Below are positions 2,690-22,179 of a stretch of 27,971 bases of DNA, in pieces. The notes below the pieces were generated by a model, which had not been told where the DNA came from, searched no databases, and saw nothing but the letters and a program-made list of their open reading frames with translations. The stretch is from Coleofasciculaceae cyanobacterium CTOTU46613 (lineage in GTDB: Bacteria; Cyanobacteriota; Cyanobacteriia; Cyanobacteriales; Coleofasciculaceae): positions 4,095 to 32,065 of the forward strand of contig DALYJI010000033.1 of assembly GCA_031969975.1 (NCBI GenBank), read 5' to 3'. Numbering within the stretch: position 1 is the stretch's first letter; each line of letters opens with the position of its first letter. A program made the translations under genes and the position numbers.

Positions 2690-4945
2690 ATGCGTATTCT
2701 ATTTTTACATCCTAATTTTCCTGCCCAATTCCGTCATCTGGCTGCGGCGCTCGCCAACGATAAACGTCACCAAGTAGTATTCGGCACTACCCGTCGCGAA
2801 GGTCATCTACCCGGTGTCACCAAGATGATTTATAGCCCAAAACGAGAAGCTCGACCGGAAACTCACCACTATGTCCGTCCCCTAGAAAACGCCGTAATTC
2901 AAGGTCAGGCTGTCTATCGCATGGCAGAGCAACTGAAGGCACGCGGATTTGTTCCCGATGTCGTCTATGGACATTCGGGTTGGGGGCCAACTTTATTAAT
3001 GAAAGATATATTTCCAAAAGCTAAATTACTGTGCTATTTTGAATGGTTTTATCATGCTCATGGCTCTGATGCTGACTTTGACCCAACTGAACAGCTAAGT
3101 GCTGACGATGAAGCCCGGATTCGGCTGAAAAATGCGCCGATTTTGATGGATTTATATAGTTGCGATCGCGGCCTTTCTCCCACCCACTGGCAGCGCCAGC
3201 AATTTCCAGTAGAAAATCAAAGTAAAATTACGGTACTTCATGATGGCATTGATACCAACTTCTTTAGCCCCAAGCCAGGAGCTAAGTTGGTTCTGCGCCA
3301 AATCAATCTAGACCTATCTCATGTGGCAGAACTCGTTACCTATGTAGGTCGAGGCATGGAACCTTACCGGGGTTTTCCGCAATTTATTGAAGCAATCTAC
3401 TTACTTCAACAGCGCCGACCCCAATGTCATGTTGTCATTGTTGGGGAAGATCGAGTTGCTTATGGGAAGTCTCTGCCAGATGGCAAAACCTATAAGCAGT
3501 TGATGTTAGAAAAATTCCCCTTAGACTTGTCTAGAGTTCACTTTACAGGACATCTCCCTTACGAAGAATATCTACAAGTTCTGCAAGCTTCTTCTGTCCA
3601 TATTTATTTGACTCGCCCCTTTGTTTTATCCTGGTCAATGTTGGAAGCTTTATCTACAGGTTGTTTGATTGTGGGTTCCAACACAGCCCCAGTAACTGAG
3701 GTCATCCAAGATGGGGTAAACGGTCTCATCGCAGAGTTCTTTTCACCAGCAGAAATTGCCGATCGAATTGAGGAAGCGTTGAATCATCCCGATCGCATGA
3801 ATCAAATCCGCACGCAAGCAAGGCAAATTATTCAGGAACGTTACGATCTGTCGCTGTTACTGCCCCAGCACTTACAGTGGATTCAGCAGGATATCGGCGA
3901 TAGTCAGATTCTGCTATGGCAGGGAACTCAGTCAAAGTCAGCCACTATCATCCCAGCCAACGAACCGCATGGGAAAGATCAAGAGTCGGAACGCTCATCC
4001 ACGCCAGAGCTAGTTCCGATCGCTCAGGGGAACGAGTCAAATGGCATTCCTAAAGCCAACAAGGCTTCAGTTAAACCAAAGCAAGTTGCGATCGCTCAGG
4101 GTTTTGGCTCAAAAGGAAAACCTAAAAGCACGAAGCATTCACCTACACCAAACCTAGCCGCTACTACCAATAGTTTCAGCTCGAAGGGAAAATCCAAAGA
4201 TCAGGAACAGCCATCTGCAACAGATTCAGGTATCTTACAAATTTGCGATCGCACCGTGACGGGGACTGAACTGGTTGTTCTGCTGAATCAATACCAACTG
4301 CTGCCAAAGCTTCAGCAAGAGATCGTAATTGAGGATGCGATCGCGCCCTTTAGCTGCACCCTGGAAGAGAAAGTCCAGTGCTGCCAGGACTTCTACGATC
4401 GGCATCAGTTGACATCCGACACGGTACGTCAAACCTGGTTGCAGCAGCAGAGCATGACAGAAGCCCAATTAATCAACCTGGCAACCCGGCAACTGAGAAT
4501 TGAAAAGTTTAAAGAAGCCACCTGGGGTAGCGAATTGGAAACCTACTTTCTCAAGCGCAAGTGCCAACTCGACCAATTCGTCTACTCCCTAATTCGTCTT
4601 CGGGATGCTGAAACTGCCCAGGAAATTTACTGCCGCTTGCAAGAAGGGGAACAGCCTTTTGCTGAATTGGCACAGCAATATTCCCAGGGTGTAGAAGCTA
4701 AGACGGGTGGCTTAATTGGTCCAGTGGGATTGAGTAACGCTCATCCTCAACTCGCCCAACTCATCAGAACCAGCCAACCAGGGCAGCTATTGCCTCCTAT
4801 TGCCATCGCAGATTTGTGGGTGATTGTGCGGTTAGAAAAGTTTTTGCCTGCTCAACTAGATGAACTAATGCGGCAGCAGTTACTCAACGAACTATTCGCT
4901 AACTGGCTCAAGGAACAACTTCAAAAACCTGCAATATCATTATAA
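2690..4945 (+). CDS. Glycosyltransferase family 1 (GT4-type) N-terminal domain fused through a low-complexity S/K/P-rich linker to a degenerate parvulin/PpiC-type peptidyl-prolyl isomerase-like C-terminal domain
   Basis: The N-terminal ~400 aa have the GT1 architecture (MRILFLHPNFP..., VGRGMEPYRGFPQFIEA..., SWSMLEALSTGCLIVGSNTAPVTEVIQDGVNGL, which is EX7E-like). The C-terminal ~100 aa (VYSLIRLRDAETAQEIYCRLQEGEQPFAELAQQYSQGVEAKTGGLIGPVGLSNAHPQLAQLI...LWVIVRLEKF) align in pattern to E. coli PpiC (LHILVK..A..LLEQIKNG.DFGKLAKKHS..PSGKRGGDLGEF.QGQMVPAFDKVVF...). The two parvulin catalytic His positions are replaced (S/L and L/V). Confidence 0.75.
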   Translation: MRILFLHPNFPAQFRHLAAALANDKRHQVVFGTTRREGHLPGVTKMIYSPKREARPETHHYVRPLENAVIQGQAVYRMAEQLKARGFVPDVVYGHSGWGPTLLMKDIFPKAKLLCYFEWFYHAHGSDADFDPTEQLSADDEARIRLKNAPILMDLYSCDRGLSPTHWQRQQFPVENQSKITVLHDGIDTNFFSPKPGAKLVLRQINLDLSHVAELVTYVGRGMEPYRGFPQFIEAIYLLQQRRPQCHVVIVGEDRVAYGKSLPDGKTYKQLMLEKFPLDLSRVHFTGHLPYEEYLQVLQASSVHIYLTRPFVLSWSMLEALSTGCLIVGSNTAPVTEVIQDGVNGLIAEFFSPAEIADRIEEALNHPDRMNQIRTQARQIIQERYDLSLLLPQHLQWIQQDIGDSQILLWQGTQSKSATIIPANEPHGKDQESERSSTPELVPIAQGNESNGIPKANKASVKPKQVAIAQGFGSKGKPKSTKHSPTPNLAATTNSFSSKGKSKDQEQPSATDSGILQICDRTVTGTELVVLLNQYQLLPKLQQEIVIEDAIAPFSCTLEEKVQCCQDFYDRHQLTSDTVRQTWLQQQSMTEAQLINLATRQLRIEKFKEATWGSELETYFLKRKCQLDQFVYSLIRLRDAETAQEIYCRLQEGEQPFAELAQQYSQGVEAKTGGLIGPVGLSNAHPQLAQLIRTSQPGQLLPPIAIADLWVIVRLEKFLPAQLDELMRQQLLNELFANWLKEQLQKPAISL

Positions 4946-5866: not shown

Positions 5867-7060
5867 TTACCAATTACCTATTAACATTTCCACTAACTGG
5901 TCAATCTCACTATACTCAGTAAAGTAGTGAACGCAGGCACGAATGCAGTCTGGATTGTAAAGGGTTCGGAGATAGAAGCCTTGTTTTTCTAATAGTTGTA
6001 CTACTTGCTTAGAGGATTGGCTATTCGTCATGACAAAGGAAACCAAACCAGCTTGAGGGGGTGAAGTTAATAAACAACGGATAGAGTCTAATTGAGATAA
6101 ACGCTGCCACAGGTACTGACTGAGTTGGCAAATTTGTTGGTAACGATCTTCTGGCGTTCCCCATTGCTGCTGAAGAGCGATCGCTTCTCGCAATCCCGCA
6201 TAAAGGGGGTAAGCCGAAGTAGCGACTTCAAAGCGCTTGCCATCGGGTTGCCAACTCACGATATCACCCGTTGCATTAGTGACAGTACTACGCCAACCAA
6301 TAAAGCTAGGGTTAAGGCTGGCTAAAGCATCAGGTCTCACGTAGAGACCCCCAAGACCTTCTGGTCCGCACCACCACTTGTGACCTGTAAAGGCGTAGAA
6401 ATCTGCTTCTAGTTCTGTCAAATTCAAGGGTAGAACTCCTACGGACTGAGCCGCATCTACTAAAATCCGGATGGGTTGGTTATCCGTCGGATAGTTATGA
6501 CAAGCCTTCACAATTTCGGCTAGCGGCAGCACTTGACCCGTGTTCCATAGGATATGACTCAGCACTACTAAGCGCGTGCGAGGTGTCAGGTGTTCCACAA
6601 TCACTGCTGTCGGATCTCCCCCGTTCAGCGTTGCCATAATTGGACAGGTGGATACTTCCACGCCAAACCGCCGTCCGATTTCTGTGGCAGCAGCGAGAAT
6701 GCCGGGATGTTCGCAATCAGTGAGGAGTAAGCGATCGCCAGCTTGCCAGTCAATTCCCCACAAGGCAATATTGCAGCCAATGCTGACATTTTCGGTAAGG
6801 GTGATGGTTTCTGGAGGTGCTTCCAGTTCTTTGGCGATGACTTGTCGGGTTTGGTTAGTTTCCTGAAGTAACCAGCCATAGACCCCACCGGAAAATGGCC
6901 CGTGCTTCTGGATATAGTGATAGGAGTTTTGGATCGCTGCCAGGGAGGCTAAGGATAGCGGGCCTTGACCGCCAAAGTTGAAATAGGCTTTGTTCGCTAA
7001 GGCCGGGAATTGCTGTCGGTAGCGTTCGAGCCGAGTTGATGCACCGTAGATATCAGACAT
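5867..7060 (-). CDS. Aminotransferase class V-fold PLP-dependent enzyme (cysteine desulfurase / isopenicillin-N epimerase-like)
   Basis: The 397-aa ORF has a PLP-lysine motif context (FYAFTGHKWWCGPEGLGGLYVRPD), similar to the HK(x)GPxGxGxLY region of NifS/SufS/CsdA-like enzymes. The N-terminal FNFGGQGPLS and DAAQSVG segments are typical of fold-type I class V. Confidence 0.8.
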   Translation of the reverse strand: MSDIYGASTRLERYRQQFPALANKAYFNFGGQGPLSLASLAAIQNSYHYIQKHGPFSGGVYGWLLQETNQTRQVIAKELEAPPETITLTENVSIGCNIALWGIDWQAGDRLLLTDCEHPGILAAATEIGRRFGVEVSTCPIMATLNGGDPTAVIVEHLTPRTRLVVLSHILWNTGQVLPLAEIVKACHNYPTDNQPIRILVDAAQSVGVLPLNLTELEADFYAFTGHKWWCGPEGLGGLYVRPDALASLNPSFIGWRSTVTNATGDIVSWQPDGKRFEVATSAYPLYAGLREAIALQQQWGTPEDRYQQICQLSQYLWQRLSQLDSIRCLLTSPPQAGLVSFVMTNSQSSKQVVQLLEKQGFYLRTLYNPDCIRACVHYFTEYSEIDQLVEMLIGNW

Positions 7061-16863: not shown

Positions 16864-17297
16864 CGTTGTTGCCTTCTGCTTTGCTGCAATGCCAAGTTAT
16901 TTTGGCATACTCCGCGTCTGAAAAGTTATTGTTTTTAGGACTTAGGCAAACGCCCCCCTAACCCCCCAAATCTGGGGGGAACAAGAAATTTCTCCCCCCA
17001 GCTCCTCATGCGATCGCCGGATTGCCCACTCTTGAGGAGTTAGAAGTCATGGACGATAAGTCGATCGATTATCAAGACTCTGACGCGAGCCAAAGGTATC
17101 GGACGGTGGACTGTACAGATGCTGCTGATTTTCCGTCTCAAGCGGTGGGATATCCTGCCTGTGGATGGGAAGATGCGATCTCGCTATTGCCTCATGTCTG
17201 TCTCACGCTAGGAGGCATACAATAAGGTCAAGCATGCTACTAATAGGATAATAATATCTTTATTTTTCTGTTTAGAAACACCACAAAAGGAGTAAAA

Positions 17298-18860
17298 ATG
17301 CCAAAGGAAAGTCCAAACGTTAGCTTAGATGCCCTGATACCTAGAGAAGCTTTTGAAGTTCTAGGACAACAAAATCAAAACATAGGAAGAAATGTTCCTA
17401 TGATATCAATTCGAGATTTAGAACAAAATTCTTTCTTCTATCCATCTTTAAGGAAGCCAGATTTCCAGCGTGAAACTAATGAGTGGGATGCTGAGAAAAT
17501 ATGTGAGTTTATAGAAAGCTTTTTGGATGGAGATTTAATCCCAGCAGTTATTCTTTGGAGAAGTTCTGGTAGTGACTACTTTGTCATTGATGGCTCACAT
17601 AGACTAAGTTCTTTAATTGCTTGGATAAATGATGATTATGGTGATGGTAAAATTTCCAAAGAATTTTATGATGGAGACATCGCAGAAGAGCAGAAGAGTG
17701 CTGCTCAGATGGTAAGAAAATTGATTAATGAAAGGATAGGTTCTTACAAGCATTATCAATCTTTAACACAGCATCGAGGAGAAGTAGACCCAAAAATTCT
17801 TGATAGAGCAAGAAACTTAGGCGCTTTAGGTATACAGCTTCAGTGGGTTGAAGGTGATGTACGCAAAGCAGAAGATTCTTTCTTCAAAATCAACCAAAAA
17901 GCAGCGCCAATAGGTGAAACTGAGATACGTTTGTTACAAGCTCGAAATACACCTAATGGTGTTGCTACTCGTGCCATCATGAGAAGTGGTAACGGACATA
18001 AGTATTGGTCAGACTTTTCTCATGAGAAGCAAGAAAATATTGAGAAATTAGCTCAAGAAATACATCAACTCATTTTTGAACCTAAGCTGAAAAATCCTAT
18101 TAAGACTTTAGACGTACCAATAGTAGGAAATTTGTCATCTTCAGAAAAACTTGAATTAATATTAGAGTTTGTCAATATAGTTAATAATATAGAAGAAGAT
18201 AATCAATTGGGAAACGATTCAACGGGAGATAAGACAGTACAACTGTTAAGAAATTGCAAAAAAGTAGCTCAAAGGATAAATAGCAAAGACCCTTCATCTC
18301 TTGGTCTTCATCCAATAATATATTTCTATACGAGTGCTGGAAAGCCTAAAATTGGCTCATTTTATGGTGTTGTTGCCTTGATGTTAGATTTAGAAAAAAC
18401 TAAATCTTTTTCTAAGTTTATACAAATTAGAAAAGATTTTGAGTGGGTGATTTGGCAAGATGATATGGTTCCACAGATTGTCAGTAAGAGCAGTGCAGTA
18501 AAGGCGAGAGGAAAGGTTAAAGATTTTTATCGACAAATCATTGACAAATTATCTGAAGGAGTAGACAAGAAAAATGTCATGAAGGAGATAGTTGCTGAAA
18601 AAACATTTGGTTCTTTAAAAAGAAAAACAAAAGGGAATACCAGTGAAACCGCAAGTAAAGAATTTTCACGAGAGACAAAATCAGCAGCATTTATCAGAGA
18701 TACTTTACCTGGTTCTCCACGATGTAGAATTTGTGAGGGATATCTCCCCAGTAGCTTTTGCTCTATAGACCATAAAATAAGAAAAGCAGATGGTGGCTTA
18801 GGTACTTTAGAGAATGCCCAGTTGACTCACCCATACTGTAATACAACATTCAAAAATTGA
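17298..18860 (+). CDS. DUF262 (ParB/Srx-fold, GmrS-like) N-terminal domain fused to a C-terminal HNH (His-Me finger, Cys4 zinc) nuclease motif. This is a GmrSD/type IV restriction-like putative defence nuclease.
   Basis: N-terminus: DFQRETNEWDAEKICEFIESFLDGDLIPAVILW...YFVIDGSHRLSSL fits the DUF262 signature ((F/Y)QR...W...DGQQR(L)). C-terminus: CRICEGYLPSSFCSIDHKIRKADGGLGTLENAQLTHPYCN fits HNH (CxxC...DH...N...HxxC). The gene is AT-rich (about 35% GC by eye, against about 48% for the neighbours) and has no HIP1 sites. A strong SD sequence (AAAGGAG) lies 7 nt upstream of the ATG. Confidence 0.8.
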   Translation: MPKESPNVSLDALIPREAFEVLGQQNQNIGRNVPMISIRDLEQNSFFYPSLRKPDFQRETNEWDAEKICEFIESFLDGDLIPAVILWRSSGSDYFVIDGSHRLSSLIAWINDDYGDGKISKEFYDGDIAEEQKSAAQMVRKLINERIGSYKHYQSLTQHRGEVDPKILDRARNLGALGIQLQWVEGDVRKAEDSFFKINQKAAPIGETEIRLLQARNTPNGVATRAIMRSGNGHKYWSDFSHEKQENIEKLAQEIHQLIFEPKLKNPIKTLDVPIVGNLSSSEKLELILEFVNIVNNIEEDNQLGNDSTGDKTVQLLRNCKKVAQRINSKDPSSLGLHPIIYFYTSAGKPKIGSFYGVVALMLDLEKTKSFSKFIQIRKDFEWVIWQDDMVPQIVSKSSAVKARGKVKDFYRQIIDKLSEGVDKKNVMKEIVAEKTFGSLKRKTKGNTSETASKEFSRETKSAAFIRDTLPGSPRCRICEGYLPSSFCSIDHKIRKADGGLGTLENAQLTHPYCNTTFKN

Positions 18861-18980
18861 ATATTCCTAGACTAGCCATAAAATTAACCCTACAATTAAC
18901 TATGGCAATCGCTCGTGCGATCGCACCTCTATAGCAATTTTAAAATCAGCTTTCTGGTTGAAAAGCTCAACCAGATTCTA

Positions 18981-19016
18981 AACAAAAAGCCTCCCATTCA
19001 GGAGGCTTTATTCTCA
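18981..19016. terminator. Bidirectional rho-independent terminator between the convergent genes 17298..18860(+) and 19039..22179(-)
   Basis: An 8-bp GC-rich stem AAGCCTCC (18987-18994) / GGAGGCTT (19001-19008) with loop CATTCA. It is flanked by TATTCTC on the + strand and, on the - strand, by TTTTGTTT (complement of AACAAAAA at 18981-18988). Confidence 0.6.
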
Positions 19017-19038
19017 CATTATGTATGAAGTTGTGGCA

Positions 19039-22000
19039 TCAATAACCAAACATCGCTAAACCCCCTACGCCTAACACCCCAGCGAAAGCTGCAACTGCGA
19101 CGGAAGTAATCGCCGTACCAAACAACCACCAAGCTGCGGTTGCAGCGGCTTTTCGGGTTTCTTTCAGTTGCTTCTTAGCCTTATGTTTGAGTTCTTTAAC
19201 TCGTTTTTGAGCTTCCTCTTGCAGGCGTTCGGCGCGGCTGAGTATGCTATCGCGCATCCCTTCAATTTGGTTGACGATCCGATTAGCATCTGCCTGGGAG
19301 ATGTCCTCGCGGGAACTCAAGATCGCTACCAAGGTATCCCGATCGAATTGACTCAGCCGATCGCGCAGCGCTTCCAATCCCGCTTCTGGATCGTCAAACA
19401 GCTTGCGCAAGTCTCCCTTAATCCCTTCATAGTTTAGTTCGGGGCGATCGAGGGAGTTGAGGTAATTCCGGATTCTGCCAAAAATGCTGTCCATCGCAGA
19501 TTGGACTTGGTGTTGGACAGCTTGCACTTGTTCGACCAACTGATGGCGAACGGAGTCGATATTATCCGCAATTCGGTTCGCGTCCTCCTCGGAAATATCC
19601 TCCCGTTGCGATAGCAGTGCCACAAGGGTATCCCGATCGAACTGCGCAAGGCGATCGCTCACACTCTTCCACCCTGCTTGGGGGTCTTTAAATAACAGTT
19701 GCAAGTCTCGCTCGATCCCTTCGGGATTGAGTTCTTCTTTGTTGGTATTCCGCAAGTACTCTTCAAATTCGGCTCGGTAATCCCGTACCGTATCTTTAGC
19801 ACGACTGGCCAAGCGTCGCGGTGCTTTGATAATGCTGCGAATCGCATCCTGTACGCGATCGATAATCCGATTCACTTGCTCCTCGCTCAAGTTTTCCCGC
19901 TGACTAAGAAGTTTGACCAAGGTGTCCCGATCCACTTCCGAGAGCCGTTCGCGTAGTGCTAATGCTCCTGCTTTCGGGTCATCTAGGAGTTTTGCCAAAT
20001 CCTGCTTGATGCCTTCGGGGTCGAGTTCATCCAGATTGGTGTTCCGCAAATACTCGGCAATTTGATGCGTCAGGCGATCGTACTGCTCCTTAGCCTTACC
20101 TGTTAATTCTTGGGGTGCATTCAGGATGCGATCTCGCACTTCTAAGAAGCGATCAATAACCTGATTAATCTGTTCCTCACTCAAATCGCCGCGCTGACTT
20201 AACAATTGCACCAGCGTATCGCGGTCAAATTCCGAAAGCCTTTGCTGTAAAGCTTTTAGTCCTGCTTGGGAGTCATCTAGGATAGTTTGCAAACCTCGCT
20301 TGATGCCTTCAGGATTTAGTTCTTCTTTGTCGATCTCGCCCAGGTAGGATTCTATCGTTTGCCTGAACTCTTCTGCTTTAGATTTTGCTTGGTCTTGCAG
20401 ATTTTGAGCCTGTGACAAAATGCGATCGCGAGTGCTTTCCAGTCGCTCGACAATTTGATTCGCTTCCTCTTCACTCAGGTCTTGACGTGCTGCTTTAAGC
20501 ATCTGCACTAAGGTGTCGCGATCGAACTGCGAGAAGCGATCGCGCAGTGCATCAATACCAGCCTCTGGGTCTTCCAGAAGTGCTTGGAAATCGCGCTCAA
20601 TACCTTCTGGATTCAGTTCTTCTTTACCCGTCCCGGCTAGATAGTTTTCAACCCTACTACGGAGGTCTTGCGATCGCTGTTGACCTTCAGACTCTTGCAC
20701 CAAGTTATATACTTCCGTCCGCAGTTCTTCTAGCTGATCTGCAATCTCAGAAACGCGCTCGGAGTCGAAGTCACCCCGCTGATTCAGCAGTTGTACGAAG
20801 TAGTCTCGATTCAGTTGCTCTAGCTGCTGGCGAACGATGCCTGAAGCTGCTTCCACGTCATAGATAACGTCTCTAAATTCCTGTTTAATCGTCTCTCGAT
20901 TCAGGTGCCAAGGTTTGGAATTGAGCAGGTAGTTTTCAACATCTGCCTTAATTGTGTTGAAGGGTTGATGCAGTATCTGATCAGCAACCTGAGTGGAAAG
21001 GGTTTTAGCTTGCTCGGTTGCTTTATCTTTGAACTGTTGCAACTGGCTAGAAATTTTTTCCACATCTAGATCGGAGAGATCTGTCCGCGTCAGTACTCTA
21101 CCCACTAGAGCGCTAATACCCAGTTGCAAGGCTTGTTCCCCGAAGCCACCATTGCCATTACCGCCATCGGATTTGCTCGAGCCAACTCCAACTAGTTGTC
21201 CGAGCCTATCGCTAAGCCGATCGGAGGTTAGCTCTTCTGGACTGGCAGACTCAAGGAAATTGAGCAGTTTTGCCTGCGGATTAATCTGTTGTTGATGACC
21301 CAATACTTGCTGCCAAGCAGCTTCTAGTTGGTCTGCAATCCGATTAACGTCTTGTTTGGATAGATCTGTACGACTGCTAATTAAATCAACGAACGTCTGA
21401 CGGTTCACGTTTTGCAGAATGTCACTATCAGCAATAGACCTCAACTCCGAACCAATGAGCAAATTTTCAAAATCCTTGCGAATTTGTTTGAGGTCTAACT
21501 TGGGTATTTGCAGATCGGCGACGTAGTCTTGTAACGTCTCCCGGACGCGAGTCGGGTTAACCGCACCCCTCAATTCGCGGCGAACAGCAGCTACAGATGC
21601 ATCGACCGTATTGACAATCTGAGCGTTTGCCGCTCTGCCACCTAGAGCTGTAGCTACTACAGCCATGACTCCTTGCCAGCTTGAACCAGCTGTACTAGCA
21701 ACGGAACCTACAATAGAACCAATCCCCCTCGAACTAACCCACAGTAGCAGCAAGAAGTATGCTGACCAGATCACAACGCCTGTAATGCCTCCCAGAATCA
21801 GGCTGTTAATTAAGGTCAGTTTCACGGCCAGAAAACACGCCATGAATAAGGCAATGTTGACGGTAACTAAAGCCCATGCCCCTACCTTGGATTCAACTAC
21901 GCTAATCTTACCACCCCAGGTTTCGGCCTCCTCAGCCTCTAAGGGATTCTCCCCGGCTGAAATGCCTGCGGCGAGCGTGAAATTGGTTAACAAAAATTGG

Positions 22001-22179
22001 AAAGCAAACGCCATGAGTACCCCAGCAATCAAGGCGATAAAAAATTGCGATCCCGAAAAGACCAGTGCCCCCTGTTCTGGAGTATTAATGACTCCAGACG
22101 CGGTCGGATCTGATGGCATTTGGGCAAGCCAGAGTGGTGCGTTGCACAACCCTAGCAACATTCCCACACTTTGAAACAT
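19039..22179 (-). CDS. Large membrane protein of unknown function: an N-terminal polytopic TM region (~4-5 helices), then about 8 tandem ~100-aa alpha-helical repeats, then a C-terminal TM anchor
   Basis: 1046 aa. The N-terminal hydrophobic segments are FFIALIAGVLMAFAFQFLL, WALVTVNIALFMACFLAVKLTLI, ILGGITGVVIWSAYFLLLLWV and VMAVVATALGG. The repeat consensus is (E/R)NYL..T.KEELNPEGI..DL..LLDDP.AG..ALR.RLS.FDRDTLV.LLSQR.DLSEE..N.I.D.....R..IL; five well-conserved copies and three degenerate ones are visible. The C-terminal segment is AAWWLFGTAITSVAVAAFAGVLGVGGLAMFGY. Confidence 0.7.
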   Translation of the reverse strand: MFQSVGMLLGLCNAPLWLAQMPSDPTASGVINTPEQGALVFSGSQFFIALIAGVLMAFAFQFLLTNFTLAAGISAGENPLEAEEAETWGGKISVVESKVGAWALVTVNIALFMACFLAVKLTLINSLILGGITGVVIWSAYFLLLLWVSSRGIGSIVGSVASTAGSSWQGVMAVVATALGGRAANAQIVNTVDASVAAVRRELRGAVNPTRVRETLQDYVADLQIPKLDLKQIRKDFENLLIGSELRSIADSDILQNVNRQTFVDLISSRTDLSKQDVNRIADQLEAAWQQVLGHQQQINPQAKLLNFLESASPEELTSDRLSDRLGQLVGVGSSKSDGGNGNGGFGEQALQLGISALVGRVLTRTDLSDLDVEKISSQLQQFKDKATEQAKTLSTQVADQILHQPFNTIKADVENYLLNSKPWHLNRETIKQEFRDVIYDVEAASGIVRQQLEQLNRDYFVQLLNQRGDFDSERVSEIADQLEELRTEVYNLVQESEGQQRSQDLRSRVENYLAGTGKEELNPEGIERDFQALLEDPEAGIDALRDRFSQFDRDTLVQMLKAARQDLSEEEANQIVERLESTRDRILSQAQNLQDQAKSKAEEFRQTIESYLGEIDKEELNPEGIKRGLQTILDDSQAGLKALQQRLSEFDRDTLVQLLSQRGDLSEEQINQVIDRFLEVRDRILNAPQELTGKAKEQYDRLTHQIAEYLRNTNLDELDPEGIKQDLAKLLDDPKAGALALRERLSEVDRDTLVKLLSQRENLSEEQVNRIIDRVQDAIRSIIKAPRRLASRAKDTVRDYRAEFEEYLRNTNKEELNPEGIERDLQLLFKDPQAGWKSVSDRLAQFDRDTLVALLSQREDISEEDANRIADNIDSVRHQLVEQVQAVQHQVQSAMDSIFGRIRNYLNSLDRPELNYEGIKGDLRKLFDDPEAGLEALRDRLSQFDRDTLVAILSSREDISQADANRIVNQIEGMRDSILSRAERLQEEAQKRVKELKHKAKKQLKETRKAAATAAWWLFGTAITSVAVAAFAGVLGVGGLAMFGY

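Follow-up and report, generated by a model that had tools for sequence, protein, structure and literature searches.

We analysed a 27,971-nucleotide stretch of contig DALYJI010000033.1 (GCA_031969975.1, forward-strand positions 4,095 to 32,065) from Coleofasciculaceae cyanobacterium CTOTU46613. This whole stretch is hereafter called the window, and all coordinates refer to it unless another locus is named. The contig itself comes from a metagenome assembly. Between mtnP and a convergent gene for a 1046-amino-acid (aa) protein, it carries an island low in guanine plus cytosine (GC) with one gene, in which a DUF262 domain is fused to an HNH nuclease. In the list of open reading frames (ORFs) with translations, the DUF262-HNH gene is the ORF at 17298..18860 (+), stop codon included, and encodes 520 aa. 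The island lies between two exact copies of HIP1 (highly iterated palindrome 1, GCGATCGC), and DNA homology to copies at other loci delimits a mobile unit within it. The main features of the locus are as follows.

17010..17017, no strand: nearest exact HIP1 on the left, separated from the unit by 152 bp and lying in host-type DNA
17169..17297, + strand: leader of the mobile unit, defined by DNA homology to copies at other loci
17171-17223, + strand: conserved ~50-nt leader element, ending in TACAAT (17218-17223)
17175-17182: one-mismatch HIP1 (GCGATCTC) at the left end of the mobile unit
17448..17927, + strand: DUF262 (GmrSD_N) domain of ParB/sulfiredoxin fold, aa 51-210, a predicted nucleoside triphosphate (NTP)-binding switch
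17928..18707, + strand: middle alpha-helical domain, aa 211-470, without a family match
18723..18848, + strand: C-terminal HNH (beta-beta-alpha-metal) nuclease, aa 476-517
18861..18902, + strand: 3' trailer of the mobile unit, with homology limits at 18889-18902
18917..18924, no strand: nearest exact HIP1 on the right, 15 bp past the unit end
18986..19009, no strand: G+C-rich hairpin with flanking A-run and T-run, outside the transferred unit

The island stands out clearly by composition. GC in 400-bp windows is 0.31-0.38 across 17200-19000, while the flanks are at ~0.50 on both sides. The 1734-bp unit has a GC of 0.352 and the rest of the window a mean of 0.469 (standard deviation 0.019), which bears out the ~35% versus ~48% estimated by eye in a preliminary description of this DNA. 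Windows of the same length (1734 bp) outside the unit never fall below 0.418, so the DUF262-HNH gene occupies the deepest trough. Its GC at third codon positions (GC3) is 0.246, compared with 0.38-0.51 in the 14 other genes of the window. This composition signal is strong and confirms that the island is foreign, AT-rich DNA.

HIP1 itself is abundant in the window, with 34 exact sites where 0.36 would be expected by chance (1.22 sites/kb). The island had been described as HIP1-free between sites at 17008 and 18915; there is indeed no exact site between the flanking pair, but the coordinates are two bases off and the gap is unexceptional. From 17010 to 18917 it measures 1907 bp and ranks fourth in the window, behind gaps of 2449, 2316 and 2041 bp. 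At this site density the probability of zero HIP1 in the unit is 0.12, and ~3.3 gaps of such length are expected. The HIP1 gap alone is therefore within chance and adds little to the composition signal. The window has a second low-GC stretch, the GDSL-lipase gene at 15182-15931 (+; GC 0.376, GC3 0.38), which may be another acquired gene given its low GC and its place in the second-longest HIP1 gap (14694-17010).

Homologues with 84-87% protein identity to the window protein sit in unrelated neighbourhoods at four other loci, L087, L091, L094 and L096, with the following gene orders.

L087: Uma2, the DUF262-HNH gene, a small HNH gene, XisI
L091: split C5 methylase, the DUF262-HNH gene, Uma2, UvrA-like
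L094 and L096 (Kamptonema animale, Phormidium nigroviride): TPR, the DUF262-HNH gene, gltB

The DNA is ~91% identical to the L087, L094 and L096 copies (a metagenome contig, Kamptonema and Phormidium, respectively). This homology opens at window position 17169/17174 and ends at 18889-18902, beyond which the sequences are unrelated. The mobile unit thus runs from 17169 to ~18902 (~1.73 kb), comprises a 129-bp leader, the coding sequence and a ~40-bp trailer, and matches the GC trough. Its borders were taken from copies at other loci because no retrieved locus retains the synteny of mtnP and the 1046-aa gene. Five cyanobacterial copies share the unusual composition (GC 0.34-0.36, GC3 0.22-0.28) and contain zero HIP1, versus 73 HIP1 in 57.5 kb of flanks, and the copies in phages KL3 and Pf8 lie 10-20 GC points under their flanks.

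Substitution patterns point to a recent arrival. Against the L087, Kamptonema and Phormidium copies, the proportion of synonymous differences (pS) is 0.13-0.16, with 0.14-0.18 substitutions per synonymous site (dS) and a ratio of nonsynonymous to synonymous rates (dN/dS) of 0.29-0.43; for L091, a more distant copy, the values are dS 0.74 and dN/dS 0.11. The gene is under purifying selection across this range (dN/dS 0.11-0.43). In the adjacent mtnP, synonymous differences are saturated in comparison with each of the retrieved genomes, those of Microcoleaceae among them (pS 0.63-0.78), and the low dS of the DUF262-HNH gene beside a saturated mtnP indicates that the transfer was recent. Together with the composition and the ~91% identical copies elsewhere, this makes recent lateral transfer, earlier proposed from composition, well supported.

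Synteny agrees with this. None of 80 mtnP loci (genome contigs) has a DUF262-HNH gene nearby or keeps mtnP beside the 1046-aa gene, and the four loci with the 1046-aa neighbour (metagenome contigs) have neither the gene nor the synteny. A syntenic copy of host-like composition, which would speak against acquisition, was seen in neither set, and the exact pre-insertion (empty) site was not recovered among them. An apparent presence/absence polymorphism between mtnP and the gene, given by contig breaks in two Logan assemblies, was rejected as an assembly artefact because the contig pieces abut and their ends coincide with a short C-run/G-run repeat. This repeat (CCCCCCTAACCCCCCAAATCTGGGGGG ... 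CCCCCC) occupies 16950-17000 in the mtnP-proximal intergenic region, and the two independent Logan assemblies break exactly there.

The edges of the unit coincide with HIP1 or sequences close to it. At the left end, a paralogous leader copy has an exact HIP1 where the unit has its one-mismatch version, and the right ends are located on HIP1 sites or no more than 15 bp from them (edge sites: window 17169-17223 and 18889-18924; L087 7003-7116, 7847-7930 and 9655-9670; L094/L096 ~9640-9660). L087 has two leader motifs, each opening with GCGATCGC, repeated before the Uma2 and DUF262-HNH genes, a hint of a small cassette array. These coincident edges may reflect HIP1-mediated recombination or cassette exchange, or may be a by-product of HIP1 abundance or of alignment ends snapping to HIP1. 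We also considered a 13-nt direct repeat (CTC[A/G]TGCGATCGC, at 17005 and 18912) as a target-site duplication; it is an extended HIP1 pair, and we rejected it because its left copy lies 152 bp outside the unit.

A second copy of the 50-nt leader element is found upstream of the Uma2 gene in L087 and in two further loci (L089, L090). The leader TACAAT or TACTAT, ~75 nt before the ATG, is a possible -10 box; a full sigma-70 consensus promoter was not found upstream of the DUF262-HNH gene on the + strand. The gene does have its own Shine-Dalgarno sequence, as claimed, a GGAG at 17289-17292 lying 5 nt ahead of the ATG, and this ribosome-binding site is kept in four close copies but not in L091. 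A 67-aa ORF upstream (17022-17225, +) is chimeric, with its first ~147 nt host-specific and its last ~57 nt from the transferred unit. Pfam gives zero match for this ORF, which is unlikely to be a real gene. The hairpin past the 3' end had been assigned to the DUF262-HNH gene as a dedicated terminator, an assignment we do not retain: the hairpin, detected on the - strand, is not part of the unit delimited by homology and lies 30 nt beyond the stop codon of the convergent 1046-aa gene. The best reading is that it belongs to the host context, as the terminator of the 1046-aa gene, possibly serving both convergent genes. An Rfam scan of 16860-19040 gave only sub-threshold terminator-like matches.

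Both domains of the protein score above their curated Pfam cut-offs: PF03235 (GmrSD_N/DUF262) at 51.9 bits (cut-off 33.2, aa 51-210) and PF01844 (HNH) at 23.0 bits (cut-off 21.4, aa 476-517). DUF1524 (PF07510) has zero match in the 520-aa protein at E <= 1, so the proposed fusion of DUF262 to an HNH domain in place of DUF1524 stands. The motifs read KPDFQRETNEW, VIDGSHRLSS and CRIC-x8-CSIDHK-x12-NAQLTHPYCN; all were quoted in the preliminary description, which gave 11 residues for the first HNH spacer instead of 8.

We aligned 59 diverse family members, each 33-50% identical to the window protein, and found 26 invariant columns that span the NTP pocket and the whole HNH site. In DUF262 these are K53, F56-Q57-R58, W63, P82, W87, D98-G99-x-H101-R102, D113 and G115, and in the nuclease C476, C479, H492, G500, H511, C514 and N515; A191, F195, N199, R225, R378 and E382 complete the set. 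The predicted catalytic residues (D491-H492, N506, N515) and zinc ligands (C476, C479, H511, C514) are invariant or nearly so. The NTP site of the window protein reads D98-G99-S100-H101-R102, and among the 59 members only position 100 varies, between A and S. The signature across these members is D-G-(A/S)-H-R, and not the DGQQR-like one that had been suggested.

A family profile searched against the PDB matched only HNH domains, with the Gme HNH nickase 4h9d ranking best (E 4e-5), followed by Cas9 and related chains; the single window protein gave zero match in a PDB sequence search. Alignment to 4h9d places H511/C514 at the second zinc pair and N515 at the metal position, which makes this an H-N-N site with a Cys-Cys-His-Cys zinc finger. 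The HNH assignment is thus upheld by PF01844, but as a variant and not in the canonical form described. The match covers aa 451-520 and shares the C-x2-C ... D-H ... N ... x2-C-N layout of the 4H9D and Cas9 HNH domains. Those domains are isolated or parts of unrelated proteins, whereas the one in the window protein is fused to DUF262 and a helical domain and has the invariant H511 replacing one zinc-ligand cysteine. The AlphaFold model of the HNH region has strands at 489-492 and 507-510 and a helix at 512-518, and the protein has the beta-beta-alpha-metal motif with flanking zinc ligands of PF01844 His-metal-finger nucleases.

The middle domain (aa 211-470) has zero match in Pfam, NCBIfam or PADLOC. 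It includes a near-invariant SLGLHPxxYFY stretch along with the invariant R225, R378 and E382. Its AlphaFold model is mostly helical, with a predicted local distance difference test score (pLDDT) >85 in most blocks, and a convincing match among solved structures was not found. It presumably serves as a DNA-binding, specificity or dimerisation domain. BrxU (7P9K) is the best multi-domain structural match; a Foldseek search of the full model against the PDB returned zero significant matches. Judged from sequence and model, the protein is in a GmrSD-like fold class yet remote from every solved member.

The family is large. A word-index search returned >3400 homologues, nearly all 512-531 aa, from cyanobacteria of many genera (56-92% identity) and from Acidobacteriota, Planctomycetes and Priestia (~53%), and an exhaustive search returned 1045 clusters at 50% identity with E <= 1e-3, 343 of them with E <= 1e-30. 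The protein matches phrog_29172 over its full length (E 5.3e-135; residues 4-520 on profile positions 4-531 of 531). NCBI and JGI annotation and PHROGs already have names for the DUF262-HNH architecture, and an architecture of this type has been noticed beside BREX (PMC10117892).

To characterize genomic context, we tallied 135 ORFs within 3.5 kb of the gene at 29 loci. None is a recurrent partner gene, which agrees with the earlier view of a self-contained single-gene module. The commonest neighbour families are DNA methyltransferases (C5 in four ORFs, N4/N6 in two, D12 in two), terminases, transposases, integrases, KAP NTPase and AAA_21. In Acidobacteriota, an identical DUF262-HNH protein occupies one chromosomal hotspot 3' of a glyoxalase gene with swapped companions (L100 versus L101/L102, 5200-9600): in one genome a split GmrS/GmrD pair, integrase fragments and an AccI/Eco57I-type system, in the other an N4/N6 methylase with an MvaI/BcnI enzyme. 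In Priestia the gene is followed by KAP NTPase and AAA_15/21 genes, and another genome has a transposase and toxin-antitoxin genes close by. Altogether, these loci show that the family tends to lie with restriction-modification and other defence genes.

Relatives are also found on mobile elements, including 59 plasmids; among 2.9 million viral contigs, only 24 carry one. The phage proteins are full-length homologues of the same architecture and length (40-46% identity), from other hosts and in prophage accessory positions. In the P2-like Burkholderia phage KL3, gp44 (40% identity) comes after an EcoRII methylase-Vsr-EcoRII-C module and adjoins the portal gene. In the filamentous Pseudomonas phage Pf8 (L098, MN710383.1), a homologue with 46% identity lies at 8523-10061, at the prophage end beside the excisionase; its label, 'putative repressor C protein', appears to be positional and wrong, as it is contradicted by the domains. 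Plasmid-borne relatives in Acinetobacter have the same domain order, with an alignment that covers 92% of the query. Their genes lie beside or within BREX-1 clusters (in one case 3.5 kb away), in agreement with PMC10117892. At only ~25% identity, they form a separate branch.

Among characterised systems, GmrSD and BrxU are the closest in build. The shared features are a single polypeptide without a methylase, an N-terminal PF03235 ParB-fold domain, a helical middle, a C-terminal His-metal-finger nuclease, and mobility with occurrence in defence islands; as in those systems, the gene stands alone without a cognate methyltransferase at the 29 loci (135 ORFs). In GmrSD, BrxU and SspE, DUF262 is an NTPase switch or sensor that controls a C-terminal His-metal-finger nuclease; the latter cleaves or nicks DNA with a given modification (PMC4619093, PMC10952713). 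There are also clear differences. GmrSD has the DGQQR motif, conserved in nearly all members (PMC4619093), and a DUF1524 nuclease, where the window protein has D-G-S-H-R and PF01844. When profiles were compared with single GmrS and GmrD sequences, only the FQR and DGxxR motifs aligned and neither score reached significance; the probability for GmrD, taken from beside a homologue, was 0.1. BrxU sensu stricto sits in a BREX locus, and the window has no BREX genes. SspE (6JIV) has another nuclease domain and is linked to sspABCD, none of which occurs in the window or near the 29 homologues. Menshen (NsnA), PD-T4-2 and Dazbog have partner genes, whereas here there are local DUF262 matches only and zero partner genes.

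Taken together, we consider it probable that the unit is a horizontally acquired cassette of ~1.73 kb encoding a stand-alone, NTP-gated defence nuclease of GmrSD/BrxU/SspE build. Under this model, the ParB/sulfiredoxin-fold DUF262 domain would bind and hydrolyse nucleotide through its FQR..W and D-G-x-H-R pocket and act as a switch. The helical middle domain, alone or with DUF262, would recognise some feature of foreign DNA; as in type IV systems, this would most probably be a base modification. The nucleotide-driven change would then license the zinc-stabilised HNH site (H492, N506, N515) to nick or cut the recognised DNA; by analogy with 4h9d, its nearest sequence relative, cleavage is possibly nicking. 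Because a methyltransferase would not be needed, one gene would make a complete system, in keeping with its spread as a cassette on its own and as an accessory gene of prophages. Single-gene variants of ParB_n plus HNH or DUF1524 are listed as type IV architectures (PMC12373910); in the supplement of that study 'HNH' appears only in the name of COG1479, from which the clade's place among the 15 tested systems is not readable. The description of this gene as a defence candidate is favoured only by genomic context and fold class, and the role itself stays putative.

Several observations weigh against this interpretation. The two defining GmrSD features, DGQQR and DUF1524, are not found. In the window the gene lies among housekeeping genes and not in a defence island. 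PADLOC returns only weak local matches to the DUF262 core at aa 53-121 (NsnA 32.8 bits, PD-T4-2_A 21.7 bits), an NCBIfam model for the 520-aa protein was not found, PHROG lists phrog_29172 as unknown function, and experimental work on the DUF262-HNH clade was not found in the literature searched. In addition, the DNA of filamentous cyanobacteria is heavily methylated, so a modification-dependent enzyme must ignore the host's own marks.

The same domains would suit an abortive-infection or toxic nuclease equally well. In this case DUF262 would sense a phage protein or a change in the nucleotide pool, and the HNH domain would attack any DNA, so that the infected cell is killed or arrested. DUF262 also occurs in the non-type IV systems Menshen, Dazbog and PD-T4-2 (PMC10952713), the best local PADLOC matches are to NsnA and PD-T4-2_A, and a GC3 of 0.25 would fit a tightly limited, potentially toxic product. 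These systems are multi-gene, though, and the 29 loci show no trace of a partner; the characterised single-polypeptide DUF262-nucleases (GmrSD, BrxU, SspE) all read DNA modification (PMC10952713). We regard an abortive-infection or toxic nuclease as unlikely, if the most plausible of the alternatives. Somewhat more doubtful is a distinct clade of single-gene immune nucleases that uses its conserved 260-aa middle domain and D-G-x-H-R pocket to read a feature of foreign DNA unlike those of GmrSD, BrxU and SspE, and whose cyanobacterial members spread as naked cassettes recombined at host HIP1 palindromes.

There is likewise only a small chance that the cassette is chiefly selfish, with the HNH domain driving its own spread or retention in a homing- or addiction-like manner and any defence benefit secondary. 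HNH domains are common in homing endonucleases, and the unit moves between unrelated loci without a recombinase of its own, with edges at HIP1 or HIP1-like sequences. Yet its flanks differ at every locus, which makes classical homing into a homologous empty allele inapplicable. Free-standing HNH homing endonucleases are small and lie between conserved homologous flanks, whereas this protein has 520 aa, is under purifying selection with its conserved NTPase domain and its middle domain of 260 aa, and belongs to a family that recurs in defence islands. An SspE-like effector dependent on host phosphorothioate DNA modification is very improbable: sspBCD or dndBCDE were not found in the window or near the 29 homologues, and the one desulfurase match reflects generic class-V aminotransferase homology, 10 kb away in host-type DNA. 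We give even less credence to a host housekeeping protein for DNA segregation or repair. The ParB-like fold is common to partition proteins, but the gene is foreign in composition, patchy across phyla and at different loci in close relatives; it is carried by phages and plasmids and is absent beside mtnP or the 1046-aa gene in other genomes.

If a stand-alone defence nuclease is the right reading, this is a one-gene, restriction-like immune enzyme passed among cyanobacteria, other phyla, plasmids and prophages. Its middle domain could reveal a new mode of recognising foreign or modified DNA; modification-dependent nucleases are useful as epigenetic tools. To our knowledge, defence in filamentous cyanobacteria has been little explored by experiment, and a 520-aa single-protein system with clear predicted catalytic residues is easy to test. 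For a specialist the surprise is modest, since databases already list the architecture and the mechanism to be expected is that of known GmrSD-type enzymes. Only the HIP1-bounded edges bear on the open question of what HIP1 is for; the evidence is thin, but if such cassettes are truly HIP1-bounded, HIP1 would be a docking site for small defence cassettes.

The neighbours in the window are ordinary: UvrD/PcrA, Ser/Thr kinase, GDSL lipase, MtnP, the 1046-aa repeat protein and a hybrid histidine kinase. Three window genes matched PADLOC models and were considered as defence genes; we rejected them as cases of generic domain homology without partner genes.

5867-7060, - strand: class-V aminotransferase/cysteine desulfurase, matching the SspA and DndA models
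10944-13292, - strand: UvrD/PcrA helicase, matching the GajB models
13382-15070, + strand: Ser/Thr kinase with WG repeats, matching the PD-T4-6 models

The 1046-aa protein (19039-22179, -) has hydrophobic segments at both ends and long internal repeats ('...ELNPEGI...DRDTLV...LSQR...'). It matches zero families above threshold and has homologues of 74-77% identity in four metagenome contigs. Near the start of the window, two RTX calcium-binding repeat (HemolysinCabind) genes lie side by side (186-1088 and 1304-2554, +), and after them comes a gene (2690-4945) that combines a glycosyltransferase with a PPIC-type rotamase domain in one protein. A bacterial homologue of the eukaryotic major vault protein (878 aa; Vault, Vault_2/3/4 and MVP_shoulder domains) is encoded at 7250-9886 (-), and its gene adjoins a SIMPL/DUF541 gene (10025-10825) and the UvrD/PcrA helicase.

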